Below, piece by piece: positions 1 to 36,912 of a stretch of 37,063 bases of DNA. Position numbers and translations under genes: made by a program. This DNA is from Escherichia phage T7. Location: the sequence record OL964749.1. The stretch is one strand, 5' to 3'. The notes below the pieces were generated by a model. It searched no databases, was not told the origin of the DNA, and saw only the letters and a program-made list of their open reading frames with translations. How positions within the stretch are numbered: the first letter of the stretch is position 1; every line of letters begins with the position of its first letter.

Positions 1-150
1 CTCACAGTGTACGGACCTAAAGTTCCCCCATAGGGGTACCTAAAGCCCAGCCAATCACCTAAAGTCAATGACCTTGAGGGTTCCCTAAGGGTTGGGGATG
101 ACCCTTGGGTTTGTCTTTGGGTGTTACCTTGAGTGTCTCTCTGTGTCCCT
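1..150. repeat. Left terminal direct repeat (TR) of a T7-type genome; identical copy at the right end
   Basis: Bases 1-150 recur exactly at 36914-37063; sequence matches the T7 terminal redundancy (CTCACAGTGTACGGACCTAAAG...). Confidence 0.95.
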
Positions 151-345
151 ACCTGTTACAGTCTCCTAAAGTATCCTCCTAAAGTATCCTCCTAAAGTCA
201 CCTCCTAACGTCCATCCTAAAGCCAACACCTAAAGACCCATCAAGTCAACGCCTATCTTAAAGTTTAAACATAAAGACCAGACCTAAAGACCAGACCTAA
301 AGACACTACATAAAGACCAGACCTAAAGACGCCTTGTTGTTAGCC
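151..345. repeat. Left-end array of short CCTAAAG-containing repeats (concatemer junction region)
   Basis: Repeated 12-13 bp units such as CCTAAAGTATCCT (165-177 and 178-190), CCTAAAGTCACCT, CCTAAAGACCAGA, as in the T7 left end. Confidence 0.8.
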
Positions 346-366
346 ATAAAGTGATAACCTTTAATC

Positions 367-431
367 ATTGTCTTTATTAATACAACTCATTGTCTTTATT
401 AATATAATCATTGTCTTTATTAATACAACTC
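367..431 (+). repeat. Tandem triplication of a 21-22 bp unit (ATTGTCTTTATTAATACAACTC) spanning the upstream half of promoter phiOL
   Basis: Copies at 367-388, 389-409 (variant AATATAATC) and 410-431; only the third is followed by CACTATAAGGAGAG. Confidence 0.85.
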
Positions 432-443
432 ACTATAAGGAGA
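421..443 (+). promoter_or_regulatory. T7 RNA polymerase promoter phiOL (left-end replication/packaging-associated promoter)
   Basis: TAATACAACTCACTATAAGGAGAG matches the T7 promoter consensus over -17 to +6 except two positions; predicted +1 near 438. Confidence 0.8.
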
Positions 444-494
444 GACAACTTAAAGAGACTTAAAAGATTAATTTAAAATTTATCAAAAAGAGTA

Positions 495-531
495 TTGACT
501 TAAAGTCTAACCTATAGGATACTTACAGCCA
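495..531 (+). promoter_or_regulatory. Strong early sigma70 promoter A1
   Basis: -35 TTGACT (495-500), 17-bp spacer, -10 GATACT (518-523), start near 531; matches the known T7 A1 sequence. Confidence 0.85.
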
Positions 532-642
532 TCGAGAGGGACACGGCGAATAGCCATCCCAATCGACACCGGGGTCAACCGGGCGCACAGTGCCTTCTAG
601 GTGACTTAAGCGCACCACGGCACATAAGGTGAAACAAAACGG

Positions 643-853: not shown

Positions 854-1549
854 ATGGCTATGTCTAACATGACTTACAACAACGTTTTCGACCACGCTTA
901 CGAAATGCTGAAAGAAAACATCCGTTATGATGACATCCGTGACACTGATGACCTGCACGATGCTATTCACATGGCTGCCGATAATGCAGTTCCGCACTAC
1001 TACGCTGACATCTTTAGCGTAATGGCAAGTGAGGGCATTGACCTTGAGTTCGAAGACTCTGATCTGATGCCTGACACCAAGGACGTAATCCGCATCCTGC
1101 AAGCGCGTATCTATGAGCAATTAACGATTGACCTCTGGGAAGACGCAGAAGACTTGCTCAATGAATACTTGGAGGAAGTCGAGGAAGTCGCACGACAGAA
1201 AGAAATTGACCGCGCTAAGGCCCGTAAAGAACGTCACGAGGGGCGCTTAGAGGCACGCAGATTCAAACGTCGCAACCGCAAGGCACGTAAAGCACACAAA
1301 GCTAAGCGCGAAAGAATGCTTGCTGCGTGGCGATGGGCTGAACGTCAAGAACGGCGTAACCATGAGGTAGCTGTAGATGTACTAGGAAGAACCAATAACG
1401 CTATGCTCCGGGTCAACATGTCCTCTGGGGACTTTAAGGCGCTTGAGGAACGAATCGCGCTGCACTGGCGTAATGCTGACCGGATGGCTATCGCTAATGG
1501 TCTTACGCTCAACATTGATAAGCAACTTGACGCAATGTTAATGGGCTGA
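854..1549 (+). CDS. In-frame fusion: Ocr (gene 0.3 anti-restriction DNA mimic, residues 1 to about 111) joined to the C-terminal roughly 120 aa of gp0.7 (host transcription shut-off domain); kinase domain absent
   Basis: 231-aa ORF; N-terminus [19 protein letters not shown]...[10 protein letters not shown] equals T7 Ocr, then a basic Arg/Lys-rich tail ending 71 bp before gene 1, as gene 0.7 does in T7. Confidence 0.85.
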
Positions 1550-4279: not shown

Positions 4280-4302
4280 CAATACGACTCACTATAGAGG
4301 GA
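4280..4302 (+). promoter_or_regulatory. T7 promoter phi1.1A
   Basis: CAATACGACTCACTATAGAGGGA; +1 near 4297. Confidence 0.85.
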
Positions 4303-6053: not shown

Positions 6054-6076
6054 TTTTACGACTCACTAAAGGAGGT
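6054..6076 (+). promoter_or_regulatory. T7 promoter phi1.5 with non-consensus -16/-15 (TTTTACGACTCACTAAAGGAGGT)
   Basis: Matches the class II promoter from -14 to +6; positions -16 and -15 are TT instead of AA, consistent with a deletion junction at the promoter edge. Confidence 0.7.
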
Positions 6077-6198: not shown

Positions 6199-6465
6199 AT
6201 GTTTCGACTTCATTACAACAAAAGCGTTAAGAATTTCACGGTTCGCCGTGCTGACCGTTCAATCGTATGTGCGAGCGAGCGCCGAGCTAAGATACCTCTT
6301 ATTGGTAACACAGTTCCTTTGGCACCTAGCGTCCACATCATTATCACCCGTTGTGACTTTGAGAAAGCAATAGACAAGAAACGTCCGGTTCTTAGTGTGG
6401 CAGTGACCCGCTTCCCGTTCGTCCGTCTGTTACTCAAACGAATCAAGGAGGTGTTACACCTGTAA
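6199..6465 (+). CDS. Gene 1.6 protein (88 aa here; C-terminal residues may be altered by the adjacent deletion)
   Basis: [32 protein letters not shown]...; position and N-terminus match T7 gene 1.6. Confidence 0.8.
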
Positions 6466-7350: not shown

Positions 7351-8049
7351 ATGGCTAAGAAGATTTTCACCTCTGCGCTGGGTACCGCTGAACCTTACGC
7401 TTACATCGCCAAGCCGGACTACGGCAACGAAGAGCGTGGCTTTGGGAACCCTCGTGGTGTCTATAAAGTTGACCTGACTATTCCCAACAAAGACCCGCGC
7501 TGCCAGCGTATGGTCGATGAAATCGTGAAGTGTCACGAAGAGGCTTATGCTGCTGCCGTTGAGGAATACGAAGCTAATCCACCTGCTGTAGCTCGTGGTA
7601 AGAAACCGCTGAAACCGTATGAGGGTGACATGCCGTTCTTCGATAACGGTGACGGTACGACTACCTTTAAGTTCAAATGCTACGCGTCTTTCCAAGACAA
7701 GAAGACCAAAGAGACCAAGCACATCAATCTTGTTGTGGTTGACTCAAAAGGTAAGAAGATGGAAGACGTTCCGATTATCGGTGGTGGCTCTAAGCTGAAA
7801 GTTAAATATTCTCTGGTTCCATACAAGTGGAACACTGCTGTAGGTGCGAGCGTTAAGCTGCAACTGGAATCCGTGATGCTGGTCGAACTGGCTACCTTTG
7901 GTGGCGGTGAAGACGATTGGGCTGACGAAGTTGAAGAGAACGGCTATGTTGCCTCTGGTTCTGCCAAAGCGAGCAAACCACGCGACGAAGAAAGCTGGGA
8001 CGAAGACGACGAAGAGTCCGAGGAAGCAGACGAAGACGGAGACTTCTAA
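7351..8049 (+). CDS. Single-stranded DNA-binding protein gp2.5
   Basis: 232-aa ORF MAKKIFTSALGTAEPYAYIAKPDYGNEERGFGNPRGVYKVDLTIPN... with acidic C-terminal tail ending ...EADEDGDF. Confidence 0.95.
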   Translation: MAKKIFTSALGTAEPYAYIAKPDYGNEERGFGNPRGVYKVDLTIPNKDPRCQRMVDEIVKCHEEAYAAAVEEYEANPPAVARGKKPLKPYEGDMPFFDNGDGTTTFKFKCYASFQDKKTKETKHINLVVVDSKGKKMEDVPIIGGGSKLKVKYSLVPYKWNTAVGASVKLQLESVMLVELATFGGGEDDWADEVEENGYVASGSAKASKPRDEESWDEDDEESEEADEDGDF

Positions 8050-8469
8050 GTGGAACTGCGGGAGAAAATCCTTGAGCGAATCAAGGTGACTTCCTCTGGG
8101 TGTTGGGAGTGGCAGGGCGCTACGAACAATAAAGGGTACGGGCAGGTGTGGTGCAGCAATACCGGAAAGGTTGTCTACTGTCATCGCGTAATGTCTAATG
8201 CTCCGAAAGGTTCTACCGTCCTGCACTCCTGTGATAATCCATTATGTTGTAACCCTGAACACCTATCCATAGGAACTCCAAAAGAGAACTCCACTGACAT
8301 GGTAAATAAGGGTCGCTCACACAAGGGGTATAAACTTTCAGACGAAGACGTAATGGCAATCATGGAGTCCAGCGAGTCCAATGTATCCTTAGCTCGCACC
8401 TATGGTGTCTCCCAACAGACTATTTGTGATATACGCAAATGGAGGCGACATGGCAGGTTACGGCGCTAA
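8050..8469 (+). CDS. Gene 2.8 protein (139 aa), HNH-type endonuclease-like
   Basis: ORF starting at GTG directly after the 2.5 stop; contains CHRVMSNAPKGSTVLHSCDNPLCCNPEHL, an HNH-like Cys/His motif. Confidence 0.7.
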   Translation: MELREKILERIKVTSSGCWEWQGATNNKGYGQVWCSNTGKVVYCHRVMSNAPKGSTVLHSCDNPLCCNPEHLSIGTPKENSTDMVNKGRSHKGYKLSDEDVMAIMESSESNVSLARTYGVSQQTICDIRKWRRHGRLRR

Positions 8470-9355: not shown

Positions 9356-9377
9356 TAATTGAACTCACTAAAGGGAG

Positions 9378-9378
<1 letters not shown>
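9356..9378 (+). promoter_or_regulatory. T7 promoter phi3.8
   Basis: TAATTGAACTCACTAAAGGGAGA; +1 near 9373. Confidence 0.85.
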
Positions 9379-11239
<1,861 letters not shown>

Positions 11240-11242
<3 letters not shown>

Positions 11243-11262
11243 TACGACTCACTAAAGGCCAC
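11240..11262 (+). promoter_or_regulatory. T7 promoter phi4.3 with altered initially transcribed sequence (GGCCAC instead of GGAGAC)
   Basis: TAATACGACTCACTAAAGG then CCACACAG; consensus through +2, consistent with a deletion junction at +3. Confidence 0.75.
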
Positions 11263-11380
11263 ACAGTCACGCGCTCTGGCGATTCGCTCCAACGAACTGG
11301 CTGACAGTGCATCCACTAAAGTTACCGAGGCTGCCCGTGTGGCAAACCAAGCTCAACAGCTTTCCAAATTCTTTGAGTAA
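11259..11380 (+). pseudogene. Remnant of gene 4.3 lacking RBS, start codon and about 30 N-terminal codons
   Basis: In-frame segment ATQSRALAIRSNELADSASTKVTEAARVANQAQQLSKFFE without an initiator; about 100 bp missing relative to reference. Confidence 0.65.
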
Positions 11381-11399
11381 TCAAACAGGAGAAACCATT

Positions 11400-11669
11400 A
11401 TGTCTAACGTAGCTGAAACTATCCGTCTATCCGATACAGCTGACCAGTGGAACCGTCGAGTCCACATCAACGTTCGCAACGGTAAGGCGACTATGGTTTA
11501 CCGCTGGAAGGACTCTAAGTCCTCTAAGAATCACACTCAGCGTATGACGTTGACAGATGAGCAAGCACTGCGTCTGGTCAATGCGCTTACCAAAGCTGCC
11601 GTGACAGCAATTCATGAAGCTGGTCGCGTCAATGAAGCTATGGCTATCCTCGACAAGATTGATAACTAA
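11400..11669 (+). CDS. Gene 4.5 protein (89 aa)
   Basis: ORF MSNVAETIRLSDTADQWNRRVHINVRNGKATMVYRWKDSK... preceded by CAGGAGAA; the track start at 11307 is an upstream extension. Confidence 0.85.
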   Translation: MSNVAETIRLSDTADQWNRRVHINVRNGKATMVYRWKDSKSSKNHTQRMTLTDEQALRLVNALTKAAVTAIHEAGRVNEAMAILDKIDN

Positions 11670-11742: not shown

Positions 11743-11994
11743 ATGCGTGACCCTAAAGTTATCCAAGCAGAAATCGCTAAACTGGAAGCTGAACTGGAGG
11801 ACGTTAAGTACCATGAAGCTAAGACTCGCTCCGCTGTTCACATCTTGAAGAACTTAGGCTGGACTTGGACAAGACAGACTGGCTGGAAGAAACCAGAAGT
11901 TACCAAGCTGAGTCATAAGGTGTTCGATAAGGACACTATGACCCACATCAAGGCTGGTGATTGGGTTAAGGTTGACATGGGAGTTGTAACATGA
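11743..11994 (+). CDS. Gene 4.7 protein, truncated: 83 aa against 135 aa in reference T7
   Basis: ORF MRDPKVIQAEIAKLEAELEDVKYHEAKTRS...VDMGVVT; about 100 bp missing near the 3' end, with the frame-shifted original stop about 55 nt downstream. Confidence 0.7.
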   Translation: MRDPKVIQAEIAKLEAELEDVKYHEAKTRSAVHILKNLGWTWTRQTGWKKPEVTKLSHKVFDKDTMTHIKAGDWVKVDMGVVT

Positions 11995-12068: not shown

Positions 12069-14183
12069 ATGATCGTTTCTGACATCGAAGCTAACGCCCT
12101 CTTAGAGAGCGTCACTAAGTTCCACTGCGGGGTTATCTACGACTACTCCACCGCTGAGTACGTAAGCTACCGTCCGAGTGACTTCGGTGCGTATCTGGAT
12201 GCGCTGGAAGCCGAGGTTGCACGAGGCGGTCTTATTGTGTTCCACAACGGTCACAAGTATGACGTTCCTGCATTGACCAAACTGGCAAAGTTGCAATTGA
12301 ACCGAGAGTTCCACCTTCCTCGTGAGAACTGTATTGACACCCTTGTGTTGTCACGTTTGATTCATTCCAACCTCAAGGACACCGATATGGGTCTTCTGCG
12401 TTCCGGCAAGTTGCCCGGAAAACGCTTTGGGTCTCACGCTTTGGAGGCGTGGGGTTATCGCTTAGGCGAGATGAAGGGTGAATACAAAGACGACTTTAAG
12501 CGTATGCTTGAAGAGCAGGGTGAAGAATACGTTGACGGAATGGAGTGGTGGAACTTCAACGAAGAGATGATGGACTATAACGTTCAGGACGTTGTGGTAA
12601 CTAAAGCTCTCCTTGAGAAGCTACTCTCTGACAAACATTACTTCCCTCCTGAGATTGACTTTACGGACGTAGGATACACTACGTTCTGGTCAGAATCCCT
12701 TGAGGCCGTTGACATTGAACATCGTGCTGCATGGCTGCTCGCTAAACAAGAGCGCAACGGGTTCCCGTTTGACACAAAAGCAATCGAAGAGTTGTACGTA
12801 GAGTTAGCTGCTCGCCGCTCTGAGTTGCTCCGTAAATTGACCGAAACGTTCGGCTCGTGGTATCAGCCTAAAGGTGGCACTGAGATGTTCTGCCATCCGC
12901 GAACAGGTAAGCCACTACCTAAATACCCTCGCATTAAGACACCTAAAGTTGGTGGTATCTTTAAGAAGCCTAAGAACAAGGCACAGCGAGAAGGCCGTGA
13001 GCCTTGCGAACTTGATACCCGCGAGTACGTTGCTGGTGCTCCTTACACCCCAGTTGAACATGTTGTGTTTAACCCTTCGTCTCGTGACCACATTCAGAAG
13101 AAACTCCAAGAGGCTGGGTGGGTCCCGACCAAGTACACCGATAAGGGTGCTCCTGTGGTGGACGATGAGGTACTCGAAGGAGTACGTGTAGATGACCCTG
13201 AGAAGCAAGCCGCTATCGACCTCATTAAAGAGTACTTGATGATTCAGAAGCGAATCGGACAGTCTGCTGAGGGAGACAAAGCATGGCTTCGTTATGTTGC
13301 TGAGGATGGTAAGATTCATGGTTCTGTTAACCCTAATGGAGCAGTTACGGGTCGTGCGACCCATGCGTTCCCAAACCTTGCGCAAATTCCGGGTGTACGT
13401 TCTCCTTATGGAGAGCAGTGTCGCGCTGCTTTTGGCGCTGAGCACCATTTGGATGGGATAACTGGTAAGCCTTGGGTTCAGGCTGGCATCGACGCATCCG
13501 GTCTTGAGCTACGCTGCTTGGCTCACTTCATGGCTCGCTTTGATAACGGCGAGTACGCTCACGAGATTCTTAACGGCGACATCCACACTAAGAACCAGAT
13601 AGCTGCTGAACTACCTACCCGAGATAACGCTAAGACGTTCATCTATGGGTTCCTCTATGGTGCTGGTGATGAGAAGATTGGACAGATTGTTGGTGCTGGT
13701 AAAGAGCGCGGTAAGGAACTCAAGAAGAAATTCCTTGAGAACACCCCCGCGATTGCAGCACTCCGCGAGTCTATCCAACAGACACTTGTCGAGTCCTCTC
13801 AATGGGTAGCTGGTGAGCAACAAGTCAAGTGGAAACGCCGCTGGATTAAAGGTCTGGATGGTCGTAAGGTACACGTTCGTAGTCCTCACGCTGCCTTGAA
13901 TACCCTACTGCAATCTGCTGGTGCTCTCATCTGCAAACTGTGGATTATCAAGACCGAAGAGATGCTCGTAGAGAAAGGCTTGAAGCATGGCTGGGATGGG
14001 GACTTTGCGTACATGGCATGGGTACATGATGAAATCCAAGTAGGCTGCCGTACCGAAGAGATTGCTCAGGTGGTCATTGAGACCGCACAAGAAGCGATGC
14101 GCTGGGTTGGAGACCACTGGAACTTCCGGTGTCTTCTGGATACCGAAGGTAAGATGGGTCCTAATTGGGCGATTTGCCACTGA
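12069..14183 (+). CDS. DNA polymerase gp5 (family A, thioredoxin-binding, with 3'-5' exonuclease)
   Basis: 704-aa [39 protein letters not shown]... with exonuclease and polymerase motifs; matches T7 gp5. Confidence 0.98.
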
Positions 14184-14198
14184 TACAGGAGGCTACTC

Positions 14199-14402
14199 AT
14201 GAACGAAAGACACTTAACAGGTGCTGCTTCTGAAATGCTAGTAGCCTACAAATTTACCAAAGCTGGGTACACTGTCTATTACCCTATGCTGACTCAGAGT
14301 AAAGAGGACTTGGTTGTATGTAAGGATGGTAAATTTAGTAAGGTTCAGGTTAAAACATTGTGGTTGACGAAGATGTGCTTATTTTCACATGGGACGAAGT
14401 AA
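14199..14402 (+). CDS. Gene 5.3 (HNH endonuclease-like), frameshift-truncated to 67 aa against 118 aa in reference
   Basis: N-terminus MNERHLTGAASEMLVAYKFTKAGYTVYYPMLTQSKEDLVVCKDGKFSKVQVKT matches gp5.3, then a short out-of-frame tail; about 100 bp missing. Confidence 0.7.
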   Translation: MNERHLTGAASEMLVAYKFTKAGYTVYYPMLTQSKEDLVVCKDGKFSKVQVKTLWLTKMCLFSHGTK

Positions 14403-14466
14403 AAGGTAAGACATCCATGTGTGTCGGCAAGAGAAACAAAGGCATAAAACTATAGGAGAAATTATT

Positions 14467-14766
14467 ATGGCTATGACAAAGAAATTTAAAGTGTCCTTCG
14501 ACGTTACCGCAAAGATGTCGTCTGACGTTCAGGCAATCTTAGAGAAAGATATGCTGCATCTATGTAAGCAGGTCGGCTCAGGTGCGATTGTCCCCAATGG
14601 TAAACAGAAGGAAATGATTGTCCAGTTCCTGACACACGGTATGGAAGGATTGATGACATTCGTAGTACGTACATCATTTCGTGAGGCCATTAAGGACATG
14701 CACGAAGAGTATGCAGATAAGGACTCTTTCAAACAATCTCCTGCAACAGTACGGGAGGTGTTCTGA
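14467..14766 (+). CDS. Gene 5.5 protein (99 aa, H-NS-binding)
   Basis: ORF MAMTKKFKVSFDVTAKMSSDVQAILEKDMLHLCKQVGS...; the track start at 14419 is an upstream extension. Confidence 0.9.
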   Translation: MAMTKKFKVSFDVTAKMSSDVQAILEKDMLHLCKQVGSGAIVPNGKQKEMIVQFLTHGMEGLMTFVVRTSFREAIKDMHEEYADKDSFKQSPATVREVF

Positions 14767-14975
14767 TGTCTGACTACCTGAAAGTGCTGCAAGCAATCAA
14801 AAGTTGCCCTAAGACTTTCCAGTCCAACTATGTACGGAACAATGCGAGCCTCGTAGCGGAGGCCGCTTCCCGTGGTCACATCTCGTGCCTGACTACTAGT
14901 GGACGTAACGGTGGCGCTTGGGAAATCACTGCTTCCGGTACTCGCTTTCTGAAACGAATGGGAGGATGTGTCTAA
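14766..14975 (+). CDS. Gene 5.7 protein (69 aa)
   Basis: ORF MSDYLKVLQAIKSCPKTFQSNYVRNNASLVAEAASRGHISCL...; start overlaps the 5.5 stop. Confidence 0.85.
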   Translation: MSDYLKVLQAIKSCPKTFQSNYVRNNASLVAEAASRGHISCLTTSGRNGGAWEITASGTRFLKRMGGCV

Positions 14976-16220: not shown

Positions 16221-16475
16221 ATGTTAACACCTATTAACCAATTACTTAAGAACCCTAACGATATTCCAGATGTACCTCGTGCAACCGCTGAGTATCTACA
16301 GGTTCGATTCAACTATGCGTACCTCGAAGCGTCTGGTCATATAGGACTTATGCGTGCTAATGGTTGTAGTGAGGCCCACATCTTGGGTTTCATTCAGGGC
16401 CTACAGTATGCCTCTAACGTCATTGACGAGATTGAGTTACGCAAGGAACAACTAAGAGATGATGGGGAGGATTGA
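16221..16475 (+). CDS. Gene 6.5 protein (84 aa)
   Basis: [43 protein letters not shown]... preceded by AAGAGGAA. Confidence 0.85.
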
Positions 16476-16479
16476 CACT

Positions 16480-16746
16480 ATGTGTTTCTCACCGAAAATT
16501 AAAACTCCGAAGATGGATACCAATCAGATTCGAGCCGTTGAGCCAGCGCCTCTGACCCAAGAAGTGTCAAGCGTGGAGTTCGGTGGGTCTTCTGATGAGA
16601 CGGATACCGAGGGCACCGAAGTGTCTGGACGCAAAGGCCTCAAGGTCGAACGTGATGATTCCGTAGCGAAGTCTAAAGCCAGCGGCAATGGCTCCGCTCG
16701 TATGAAATCTTCCATCCGTAAGTCCGCATTTGGAGGTAAGAAGTGA
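16480..16746 (+). CDS. Gene 6.7 protein (88 aa, virion protein)
   Basis: ORF MCFSPKIKTPKMDTNQIRAVEPAPLTQEVSSVEFGG...; the track start at 16459 is an upstream extension. Confidence 0.8.
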   Translation: MCFSPKIKTPKMDTNQIRAVEPAPLTQEVSSVEFGGSSDETDTEGTEVSGRKGLKVERDDSVAKSKASGNGSARMKSSIRKSAFGGKK

Positions 16747-17147
16747 TGTCTGAGTTCACATGTGTGGAGGCTAAGAGTCGCTTCCGTGCAATCCGGTGGA
16801 CTGTGGAACACCTTGGGTTGCCTAAAGGATTCGAAGGACACTTTGTGGGCTACAGCCTCTACGTAGACGAAGTGATGGACATGTCTGGTTGCCGTGAAGA
16901 GTACATTCTGGACTCTACCGGAAAACATGTAGCGTACTTCGCGTGGTGCGTAAGCTGTGACATTCACCACAAAGGAGACATTCTGGATGTAACGTCCGTT
17001 GTCATTAATCATGAGGCAGACTCTAAGGGCTTACAGCGATTCCTAGCGAAACGCTTTAAGTACCTTGCGGAACTCCACGATTGCGATTGGGTGTCTCGTT
17101 GTAAGCATGAAGGCGAGACAATGCGTGTATACTTTAAGGAGGTATAA
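16746..17147 (+). CDS. Gene 7 protein (133 aa)
   Basis: ORF MSEFTCVEAKSRFRAIRWTVEHLGLPKGFEGHFVGYSLYV...; start overlaps the 6.7 stop (GTGATG). Confidence 0.85.
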   Translation: MSEFTCVEAKSRFRAIRWTVEHLGLPKGFEGHFVGYSLYVDEVMDMSGCREEYILDSTGKHVAYFAWCVSCDIHHKGDILDVTSVVINHEADSKGLQRFLAKRFKYLAELHDCDWVSRCKHEGETMRVYFKEV

Positions 17148-17150
17148 GTT

Positions 17151-17438
17151 ATGGGTAAGAAAGTTAAGAAGGCCGTGAAGAAAGTCACCAAGTCCGTTAA
17201 GGAAGGGGCTCGTCCGGTTAAACAGGTTGCTGGCGGTCTAGCTGGTCTGGCTGGTGGTACTGGTGAAGCACAGATGGTGGAAGTACCACAAGCTGCCGCA
17301 CAGATTGTTGACGTACCTGAGAAAGAGGTTTCCACTGAGGACGAAGCACAGACAGAAAGCGGACGCAAGAAAGCTCGTGCTGGCGGTAAGAAATCCTTGA
17401 GTGTAGCCCGTAGCTCCGGTGGCGGTATCAACATTTAA
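17151..17438 (+). CDS. Gene 7.3 protein (tail-associated), 95 aa here (reference about 99 aa)
   Basis: Lys-rich ORF MGKKVKKAVKKVTKSVKEGARPVKQVAGGLAGLAGG... preceded by AAGGAGGT. Confidence 0.8.
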   Translation: MGKKVKKAVKKVTKSVKEGARPVKQVAGGLAGLAGGTGEAQMVEVPQAAAQIVDVPEKEVSTEDEAQTESGRKKARAGGKKSLSVARSSGGGINI

Positions 17439-17451
17439 TCAGGAGGTTATC

Positions 17452-17475
17452 CGTAAGACATGGAGACACATTTAA
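17452..17475 (+). other. Residual 3' end of gene 7.7 (last 7 codons plus stop), retaining the gene 8 ribosome-binding region
   Basis: Only CGTAAGACATGGAGACACATTTAA remains between the 7.3 intergenic AGGAGG and the gene 8 ATG, where reference T7 carries the roughly 130-codon gene 7.7. Confidence 0.65.
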
Positions 17476-19184: not shown

Positions 19185-20108
19185 ATGGCTGAATCTAATG
19201 CAGACGTATATGCATCTTTTGGCGTGAACTCCGCTGTGATGTCTGGTGGTTCCGTTGAGGAACATGAGCAGAACATGCTGGCTCTTGATGTTGCTGCCCG
19301 TGATGGCGATGATGCAATCGAGTTAGCGTCAGACGAAGTGGAAACAGAACGTGACCTGTATGACAACTCTGACCCGTTCGGTCAAGAGGATGACGAAGGC
19401 CGCATTCAGGTTCGTATCGGTGATGGCTCTGAGCCGACCGATGTGGACACTGGAGAAGAAGGCGTTGAGGGCACCGAAGGTTCCGAAGAGTTTACCCCAC
19501 TGGGCGAGACTCCAGAAGAACTGGTAGCTGCCTCTGAGCAACTTGGTGAGCACGAAGAGGGCTTCCAAGAGATGATTAACATTGCTGCTGAGCGTGGCAT
19601 GAGTGTCGAGACCATTGAGGCTATCCAGCGTGAGTACGAGGAGAACGAAGAGTTGTCCGCCGAGTCCTACGCTAAGCTGGCTGAAATTGGCTACACGAAG
19701 GCTTTCATTGACTCGTATATCCGTGGTCAAGAAGCTCTGGTGGAGCAGTACGTAAACAGTGTCATTGAGTACGCTGGTGGTCGTGAACGTTTTGATGCAC
19801 TGTATAACCACCTTGAGACGCACAACCCTGAGGCTGCACAGTCGCTGGATAATGCGTTGACCAATCGTGACTTAGCGACCGTTAAGGCTATCATCAACTT
19901 GGCTGGTGAGTCTCGCGCTAAGGCGTTCGGTCGTAAGCCAACTCGTAGTGTGACTAATCGTGCTATTCCGGCTAAACCTCAGGCTACCAAGCGTGAAGGC
20001 TTTGCGGACCGTAGCGAGATGATTAAAGCTATGAGTGACCCTCGGTATCGCACAGATGCCAACTATCGTCGTCAAGTCGAACAGAAAGTAATCGATTCGA
20101 ACTTCTGA
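19185..20108 (+). CDS. Capsid assembly (scaffolding) protein gp9
   Basis: 307-aa acidic ORF MAESNADVYASFGVNSAVMSGGSVEEHEQNMLALD...; matches T7 gp9. Confidence 0.95.
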   Translation: MAESNADVYASFGVNSAVMSGGSVEEHEQNMLALDVAARDGDDAIELASDEVETERDLYDNSDPFGQEDDEGRIQVRIGDGSEPTDVDTGEEGVEGTEGSEEFTPLGETPEELVAASEQLGEHEEGFQEMINIAAERGMSVETIEAIQREYEENEELSAESYAKLAEIGYTKAFIDSYIRGQEALVEQYVNSVIEYAGGRERFDALYNHLETHNPEAAQSLDNALTNRDLATVKAIINLAGESRAKAFGRKPTRSVTNRAIPAKPQATKREGFADRSEMIKAMSDPRYRTDANYRRQVEQKVIDSNF

Positions 20109-20121
20109 TAGACTTCGAAAT

Positions 20122-20144
20122 TAATACGACTCACTATAGTGAGA
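20122..20144 (+). promoter_or_regulatory. T7 class III promoter phi10 carrying a G-to-T change at +2 (TATAGTGAGA instead of TATAGGGAGA)
   Basis: TAATACGACTCACTATAGTGAGACCACAACGGTTTCCCTCTAGAAATAATTTTGTTTAACTTTAAGAAGGAGATATACATATG; otherwise identical to the phi10 promoter and leader used in pET vectors. Confidence 0.9.
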
Positions 20145-20201
20145 CCACAACGGTTTCCCTCTAGAAATAATTTTGTTTAACTTTAAGAAGGAGATATACA
20201 T

Positions 20202-21239
20202 ATGGCTAGCATGACTGGTGGACAGCAAATGGGTACTAACCAAGGTAAAGGTGTAGTTGCTGCTGGAGATAAACTGGCGTTGTTCTTGAAGGTATTTGGC
20301 GGTGAAGTCCTGACTGCGTTCGCTCGTACCTCCGTGACCACTTCTCGCCACATGGTACGTTCCATCTCCAGCGGTAAATCCGCTCAGTTCCCTGTTCTGG
20401 GTCGCACTCAGGCAGCGTATCTGGCTCCGGGCGAGAACCTCGACGATAAACGTAAGGACATCAAACACACCGAGAAGGTAATCACCATTGACGGTCTCCT
20501 GACGGCTGACGTTCTGATTTATGATATTGAGGACGCGATGAACCACTACGACGTTCGCTCTGAGTATACCTCTCAGTTGGGTGAATCTCTGGCGATGGCT
20601 GCGGATGGTGCGGTTCTGGCTGAGATTGCCGGTCTGTGTAACGTGGAAAGCAAATATAATGAGAACATCGAGGGCTTAGGTACTGCTACCGTAATTGAGA
20701 CCACTCAGAACAAGGCCGCACTTACCGACCAAGTTGCGCTGGGTAAGGAGATTATTGCGGCTCTGACTAAGGCTCGTGCGGCTCTGACCAAGAACTATGT
20801 TCCGGCTGCTGACCGTGTGTTCTACTGTGACCCAGATAGCTACTCTGCGATTCTGGCAGCACTGATGCCGAACGCAGCAAACTACGCTGCTCTGATTGAC
20901 CCTGAGAAGGGTTCTATCCGCAACGTTATGGGCTTTGAGGTTGTAGAAGTTCCGCACCTCACCGCTGGTGGTGCTGGTACCGCTCGTGAGGGCACTACTG
21001 GTCAGAAGCACGTCTTCCCTGCCAATAAAGGTGAGGGTAATGTCAAGGTTGCTAAGGACAACGTTATCGGCCTGTTCATGCACCGCTCTGCGGTAGGTAC
21101 TGTTAAGCTGCGTGACTTGGCTCTGGAGCGCGCTCGCCGTGCTAACTTCCAAGCGGACCAGATTATCGCTAAGTACGCAATGGGCCACGGTGGTCTTCGC
21201 CCAGAAGCTGCTGGTGCAGTGGTTTTCAAAGTGGAGTAA
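20202..21239 (+). CDS. Major capsid protein gp10A
   Basis: 345-aa ORF MASMTGGQQMGTNQGKGVVAAGDKLALFLKVFGGEVLTAFARTSV...; identical to T7 gp10A including the T7-tag N-terminus. Confidence 0.98.
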   Translation: MASMTGGQQMGTNQGKGVVAAGDKLALFLKVFGGEVLTAFARTSVTTSRHMVRSISSGKSAQFPVLGRTQAAYLAPGENLDDKRKDIKHTEKVITIDGLLTADVLIYDIEDAMNHYDVRSEYTSQLGESLAMAADGAVLAEIAGLCNVESKYNENIEGLGTATVIETTQNKAALTDQVALGKEIIAALTKARAALTKNYVPAADRVFYCDPDSYSAILAALMPNAANYAALIDPEKGSIRNVMGFEVVEVPHLTAGGAGTAREGTTGQKHVFPANKGEGNVKVAKDNVIGLFMHRSAVGTVKLRDLALERARRANFQADQIIAKYAMGHGGLRPEAAGAVVFKVE

Positions 21240-36773: not shown

Positions 36774-36912
36774 GGTCTTCCTGACCGACTGATGGCTCAT
36801 CTATACCTAAAGATAGGCCATCCTATCAGTGTCACCTAAAGAGGGTCTTAGAGAGGGCCTATGGAGTTCCTATAGGGTCCTTTAAAATATACCATAAAAA
36901 TCTGAGTGACTA

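Follow-up and report, generated by a model that had tools for sequence, protein, structure and literature searches.

Gene 5.3 of the phage T7 genome OL964749.1 has lost a block of exactly 100 bp, and we attribute this loss, with very little doubt, to a designed CiPGr 'cassette-100' edit in a genome-reduced T7. The attribution is based on the exact size of the deletion, its clean junction, the Cas9 protospacer found at the centre of the missing block, the records of sibling phages and the published design of such edits. Throughout, the window is the whole 37,063-nt stretch of OL964749.1, and the T7 reference is V01146 (39,937 bp). OL964749.1 is a near-complete T7 genome, 7.2% reduced relative to V01146 and collinear with it; the identity is about 99.5-100% over the collinear blocks, with the exception of divergent terminal-repeat regions. 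The whole-genome comparison with T7 revealed ten deletions: five of exactly 100 bp, two on gene boundaries and three bounded by direct repeats (Table 1).

The left end of the genome (window 1-600) departs from T7 in ways that are common to OL964748 and OL964750. At both genome ends the terminal repeat has lost 8 bp (CCTTCGGT) and, separately, 1 bp, and the CCTAAAG repeat array contains one altered unit. Directly upstream of the promoter phiOL there are two extra tandem copies of a sequence of ~22 bp (TAATCATTGTCTTTATTAATAYA), with three extra copies in clone T7_1t3 (OL964750.1).

The deletion in gene 5.3

The original prediction, made from the letters of the window, was that gene 5.3 is frameshift-truncated by an internal deletion of roughly 100 bp. 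Alignment to V01146 bears this out and makes it exact: identity is 100% on either side of a single gap, with window 14100-14357 corresponding to T7 16384-16641 and window 14358-14800 to T7 16742-17184, and the 100 bp of T7 16642-16741 are absent. The wild-type flanks are unaltered (258 and 443 identical bases), and the junction has no scar. The alignment to T7 also shows no microhomology at this junction, as the endpoints of the deletion share 0 bases.

Since 100 (3 x 33 + 1) is not a multiple of three, translation leaves the native frame after codon 53 and runs into a stop 14 codons on. Of the 67 aa of the truncated product, the first 53 are identical to gp5.3; LWLTKMCLFSHGTK and the stop follow. 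The reference gp5.3 has 118 aa. These values agree with the prediction, which had described a match to gp5.3 of about 53 residues, a stop after 67 codons and a reference length of 118 aa. Its further remark that a downstream frame still encodes what looks like the original C-terminus also stands: the frame at 14360-14455 spells VVDEDVLIFTWDEVKGKTSMCVGKRNKGIKL, which corresponds to gp5.3 residues 88-118 (31 codons) followed by the original stop. Translation of these 31 aa by a restart at GTG 14360 is unlikely; the upstream sequence GGTTAAAACATT contains no Shine-Dalgarno-like sequence.

Both neighbouring genes are intact, gene 5 ending at its stop at 14183 (window 12069-14183) and gene 5.5 keeping its own ribosome-binding site. 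The distance from the gene 5 stop to the gene 5.5 start, predicted to be about 100 bp shorter than in T7, is shorter by exactly that number. The stop of gene 5.3 now lies 64 nt upstream of the gene 5.5 start, compared to 11 nt in T7. Judging from this change in spacing, the loss of translational coupling, if there was any, is the only plausible polar effect on gene 5.5. The deleted gene 5.3 block contains no annotated regulatory element: the annotation of V01146 has neither a promoter nor a terminator between phi4.7 and phi6.5.

Table 1. Positions of the gene 5.3 features and of the other deletions in OL964749.1, with the corresponding positions in T7
Feature	Window position	Strand	T7 position (V01146)	Details
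Deletion junction, gene 5.3	14357..14358		16641 joined to 16742	
Truncated gene 5.3 ORF	14199..14402	+		53 native codons, 14 frameshifted codons, TAA stop
Residual 3' part of gene 5.3	14358..14455	+		out of frame
Gene 5.5	14467..14766	+		intact; own ribosome-binding site TAGGAGA at 14454-14460
Putative donor homology arms	14308..14407 (14308-14357 + 14358-14407)		16592-16641 + 16742-16791	
100-bp deletion, gene 1.6/1.7 boundary	6455..6456		8163-8262	protospacer 8203-8222, PAM GGG
100-bp deletion, gene 4.3	11256..11258		13341-13440	minus-strand protospacer 13381-13400, PAM TGG
100-bp deletion, gene 4.7	11987..11988		14172-14271	protospacer 14212-14231, PAM AGG
100-bp deletion, right end	36799..36800		39565-39664	protospacer 39605-39624, PAM AGG
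Whole-gene deletion, gene 1.4	6056..6057		7608-7763	ATG to stop
Gene-style deletion, gene 7.7	17451..17452		19848-20216	from start codon, 24 bp left before gene 8
1,480-bp deletion	1173-1185		1244-2723	between 13-bp direct repeats AGGAAGTCGAGGA
277-bp deletion	9370-9378		11177-11453	between 9-bp repeats AAAGGGAGA
104-bp deletion	574-582		~550-653	9-bp repeat GTCAACCGG; E. coli promoter A2 region lost

Protospacers and the other deletions

We scanned the five deleted 100-bp blocks for a 20-nt SpCas9 protospacer with an NGG PAM. All five have such a 20-mer at block positions 41-60, corresponding to a layout of 40+20+40. The centred protospacer is on the plus strand in four blocks and on the minus strand in one (gene 4.3, after resolving a 3-bp ambiguity in the placement of this deletion). 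The gene 5.3 block carries it at T7 16682-16701 (TTAGGCTAGGTGGATGCGGT, PAM AGG), again at positions 41-60. By chance, a centred protospacer is expected in about 10% of T7 100-bp blocks. The joint chance of finding one in five blocks out of five is about 4e-5, or about 3e-3 when corrected for the 81 possible offsets. Microhomology is absent from four of the five 100-bp deletions, the fifth being the ambiguous 3 bp in gene 4.3. The round sizes and the lack of microhomology in four of the five cases, together with the presence of gene-exact deletions, indicate design.

The deletion at the 1.6/1.7 boundary starts 3 bp before the gene 1.7 ATG, so that the stop codon of gene 1.6 is lost too; in the sibling annotation, gene 1.6 is lengthened to 267 nt and gene 1.7 restarts internally. 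The right-end block lies downstream of gene 19.5, near the right terminal repeat, and only a 22-codon ORF overlaps it. The junction at gene 7.7 is also found in MZ375287, MZ375289, MZ375291 and MZ375294.

The remaining three deletions have direct repeats at their ends and for this reason look spontaneous rather than designed. The largest runs from the 3' end of gene 0.3 through genes 0.4-0.6 and takes in most of gene 0.7; the C-terminal fragment of gene 0.7 that it leaves is called 'protein kinase' in sibling annotations. The 277-bp deletion affects both the phi3.8 promoter, whose start region is gone, and gene 3.8, which has lost its 5' part. Such repeat-bounded losses fit the undesigned escape deletions described by Yuan et al. 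2022 (PMC9825161).

Could the gene 5.3 lesion have a similar origin, that is, a spontaneous deletion during propagation, by slippage or illegitimate recombination at short direct repeats, amounting to natural pseudogenisation? The dispensability of gene 5.3 would allow it, and deletions between repeats of 13 bp, 9 bp and, near promoter A2, 9 bp are present in this very genome. However, no repeat is found at the gene 5.3 junction, whereas the T7 1244-2723 and gene 3.8 deletions have repeats of 13 and 9 bp, and the exact size of 100 bp is common to four more deletions, with every block centred on a protospacer. The distribution of the deletion speaks against a spontaneous origin as well. In a search of the phage collection, 54 T7 records matched both flanks of a junction probe, and the junction was recovered from one of them only, OL964750.1, which is a sibling engineered clone; MZ318362 and MZ318363 matched the right half of the probe only. 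A spontaneous deletion is thus a highly improbable source of the lesion.

Sibling clones and the CiPGr design

The design to which we assign the gene 5.3 deletion is that of Yuan et al. (Nucleic Acids Res 2022, PMC9825161), who applied CiPGr to T7, T4, selz and seszw. Their chip-synthesised 200-nt cassettes combine a spacer of 20 nt with a donor whose two arms measure 50 bp each. In this scheme, 'cassette-100' removes a 100-bp fragment to disrupt a gene, 'cassette-gene' removes the entire gene, and the two libraries are described as separate. The worked example of the paper is T7 gp4.7 and gp5.3. Mutants with disrupted gp5.3 rose to dominance during serial transfer, plaques were isolated after eight transfers on a plasmid-free host, and undesigned large deletions were put down to CRISPR-escape events. 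One phage, T7_100_t2, is given as 7.1% reduced (PMC9825161).

Under this design, the plasmid would supply an sgRNA against the gene 5.3 protospacer (T7 16682-16701, the probable spacer, with its AGG PAM), and a donor composed of the two 50-bp stretches that flank the 100-bp block centred on it. In the putative arms listed in Table 1 the bases are identical to T7, while the length of 50 bp is taken from the published design and the boundaries are predicted from it. Cas9 would then cut wild-type T7 genomes at gene 5.3. Recombination with the donor would remove both the protospacer and the PAM, so that edited phages would escape cutting and take over the population. With the frame shifted after codon 53, gp5.3 residues 54-118 are lost, which most probably leaves a null allele of a non-essential gene. 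The original prediction could not see the cause of the deletion; a designed edit by CRISPR-Cas9 and homologous recombination is, in our view, nearly certain to be that cause.

Two observations count against the CiPGr reading. The right-end block (T7 39565-39664) contains no annotated gene in V01146 or NC_001604, and OL964749.1 mixes 100-bp and whole-gene deletions, although the libraries of the paper are separate. The coexistence of 100-bp edits with whole-gene edits (1.4, 7.7) suggests library cross-contamination or recombination between populations.

The closest match to the lesion is found in OL964750.1 ('Mutant Escherichia phage T7 clone T7_1t3', 37,455 bp), where the gene 5.3 junction is identical to that of OL964749.1 and the 204-nt, 67-codon truncated CDS, annotated as T71t3_18, is identical too. 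Over the first 34,417 bases of OL964750.1, which the comparison covered, it shares the 100-bp deletions in 1.7, 4.3 and 4.7 and the deletions of gene 1.4, gene 3.8 and genes 0.3-0.7. It differs from OL964749.1 in having kept gene 7.7, in one more tandem copy of ~22 bp upstream of phiOL and in about 22 point differences in the aligned sequence. As an independently deposited record has the identical junction and CDS, the gene 5.3 deletion is neither a chance pattern nor a read error.

OL964748.1 ('Mutant Escherichia phage T7 clone T7_1t1', 37,088 bp) has all the other deletions of OL964749.1, including that of gene 7.7 and the 100-bp deletion at the right end. Unlike OL964749.1, it retains an intact gene 5.3 of 118 codons; of the three sibling isolates compared, two (OL964749.1 and T7_1t3) carry the 100-bp allele. 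An additional deletion between phi1.1A and phi1.1B, of about 58-75 bp according to BLAST block boundaries, is found only in OL964748.1; its junction, at about position 4281-4297 of the record, has a 17-bp overlap. With an accession between those of T7_1t1 and T7_1t3, OL964749.1 is most likely the sibling clone T7_1t2, which would make it one of the plaques obtained after the eight transfers; its reduction of 7.2%, against 7.1% for T7_100_t2, leaves this assignment uncertain.

These records bear on the possibility that the gap arose in sequencing, assembly or consensus calling, for example from dropped low-coverage windows, and that gene 5.3 of the actual phage still has all its 118 codons. Pipelines can yield gaps of round-number size, and the left ends of the assemblies do differ between siblings in small indels and repeat-copy number. 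Against this, we looked for a common coordinate grid underlying the five 100-bp gaps and found none, while each gap is centred on a PAM-adjacent 20-mer. Moreover, the gap varies among clones of one deposit series, T7_1t1 being intact and T7_1t3 gapped, and the authors' own PCR detected the disruption of gp5.3 (PMC9825161). We give an artefact hardly any credence. Re-sequencing would not bring back the 118-codon ORF, the lesion being one of design and not of decay or of sequencing.

Engineering by another route or in another study has also to be weighed, since the collection holds many engineered T7 genomes: the deletion could come from synthetic genome assembly, retron recombineering or marker-based recombination instead of a CiPGr cassette-100. 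Yet the closest relatives, which have all the other junctions in common with OL964749.1, share an accession block with mutants of the Salmonella phages selz and seszw (OL964747 and OL964751), which belong to the CiPGr study, and the T7_280L records follow the CiPGr clone naming and carry related edits. In addition, the 40+20+40 layout and its NGG PAM are in keeping with a design for Cas9 counter-selection. An origin in some other kind of engineering is very unlikely on these grounds, and we retain the CiPGr cassette-100 edit as the explanation of the lesion.

The gene 5.3 allele, the CiPGr method and the dispensability of the gene have all been published, and the same junction is already in GenBank. 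The outcome is mainly one of curation. The broken or missing genes 5.3, 1.4, 1.7, 4.3, 4.7 and 7.7 are products of design, and as such are uninformative on natural gene decay, homing-endonuclease turnover or sequencing quality. The protospacer-centred 40+20+40 signature provides a simple, reusable marker of CRISPR-donor edits in deposited phage genomes.

gp5.3, its loss and known T7 deletions

Profile searches place gp5.3 in the vicinity of nucleases. The full-length T7 protein matches Pfam PF11645 (PDDEXK_5) with 42.1 bits over residues 5-96, and the truncated product matches it with 38.3 bits over residues 5-58, covering profile positions 4-57 of 138 (cut-off 26.1 in both cases). Both also match phrog_5018, a family of unknown function, the truncated product over residues 1-55. 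A weak alignment (E = 0.013) relates gp5.3 to PDB 2OST, a 'putative endonuclease' which we take to be the PD-(D/E)XK homing endonuclease I-Ssp6803I, and pairs D37 and Q50-V-K52 of gp5.3 with DLV and VQVK of 2OST. On the strength of these sequence matches, gp5.3 is probably a small PD-(D/E)XK-type endonuclease-like protein.

The segment with the putative D37/Q50/K52 motif is preserved in the 67-aa remnant, which has lost residues 54-118. Because more than half of the domain is gone, the remnant is most likely unstable and functionally null. T7 can grow on E. coli MG1655 without gene 5.3, a published result which the allele confirms.

A connection between 'Gp5.3-cleaved' DNA ends and the defence protein Ppl is made in the title of Xu et al. 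(Mol Cell 2026). Should this Gp5.3 be the T7 protein, gp5.3 would be an active nuclease, and knockouts of gene 5.3 might evade defence by Ppl. It is conceivable that the knockout is more than a neutral passenger, having raised the fitness of T7 in E. coli K-12 or removed a trigger of host defence, and that the remnant might have residual activity or disturb other proteins. The basis for such a reading is the dominance of gp5.3-disrupted phages in the serial transfers (PMC9825161), the presence of the allele in two of the three sibling isolates and the wording of the 2026 title; we regard it as unlikely.

The allele described here can be set beside two other kinds of gene loss in T7. MZ375287.1 ('T7_280L'), from the same study, has a gene 5.3 allele of the cassette-gene type, whose junction is clean and free of microhomology. 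This allele lacks 338 bp (T7 16483-16820), starting at the ATG and ending 19 bp short of the stop, and so leaves no truncated peptide. Classical spontaneous deletions of T7, known from Studier-era mutants, occur between short direct repeats and remove dispensable genes, giving viable phages with shorter genomes. Deletions of this classical, repeat-bounded type do occur elsewhere in OL964749.1; the gene 5.3 deletion differs from them in that its ends lack a repeat, its size is round and a protospacer lies at the centre of the deleted block.
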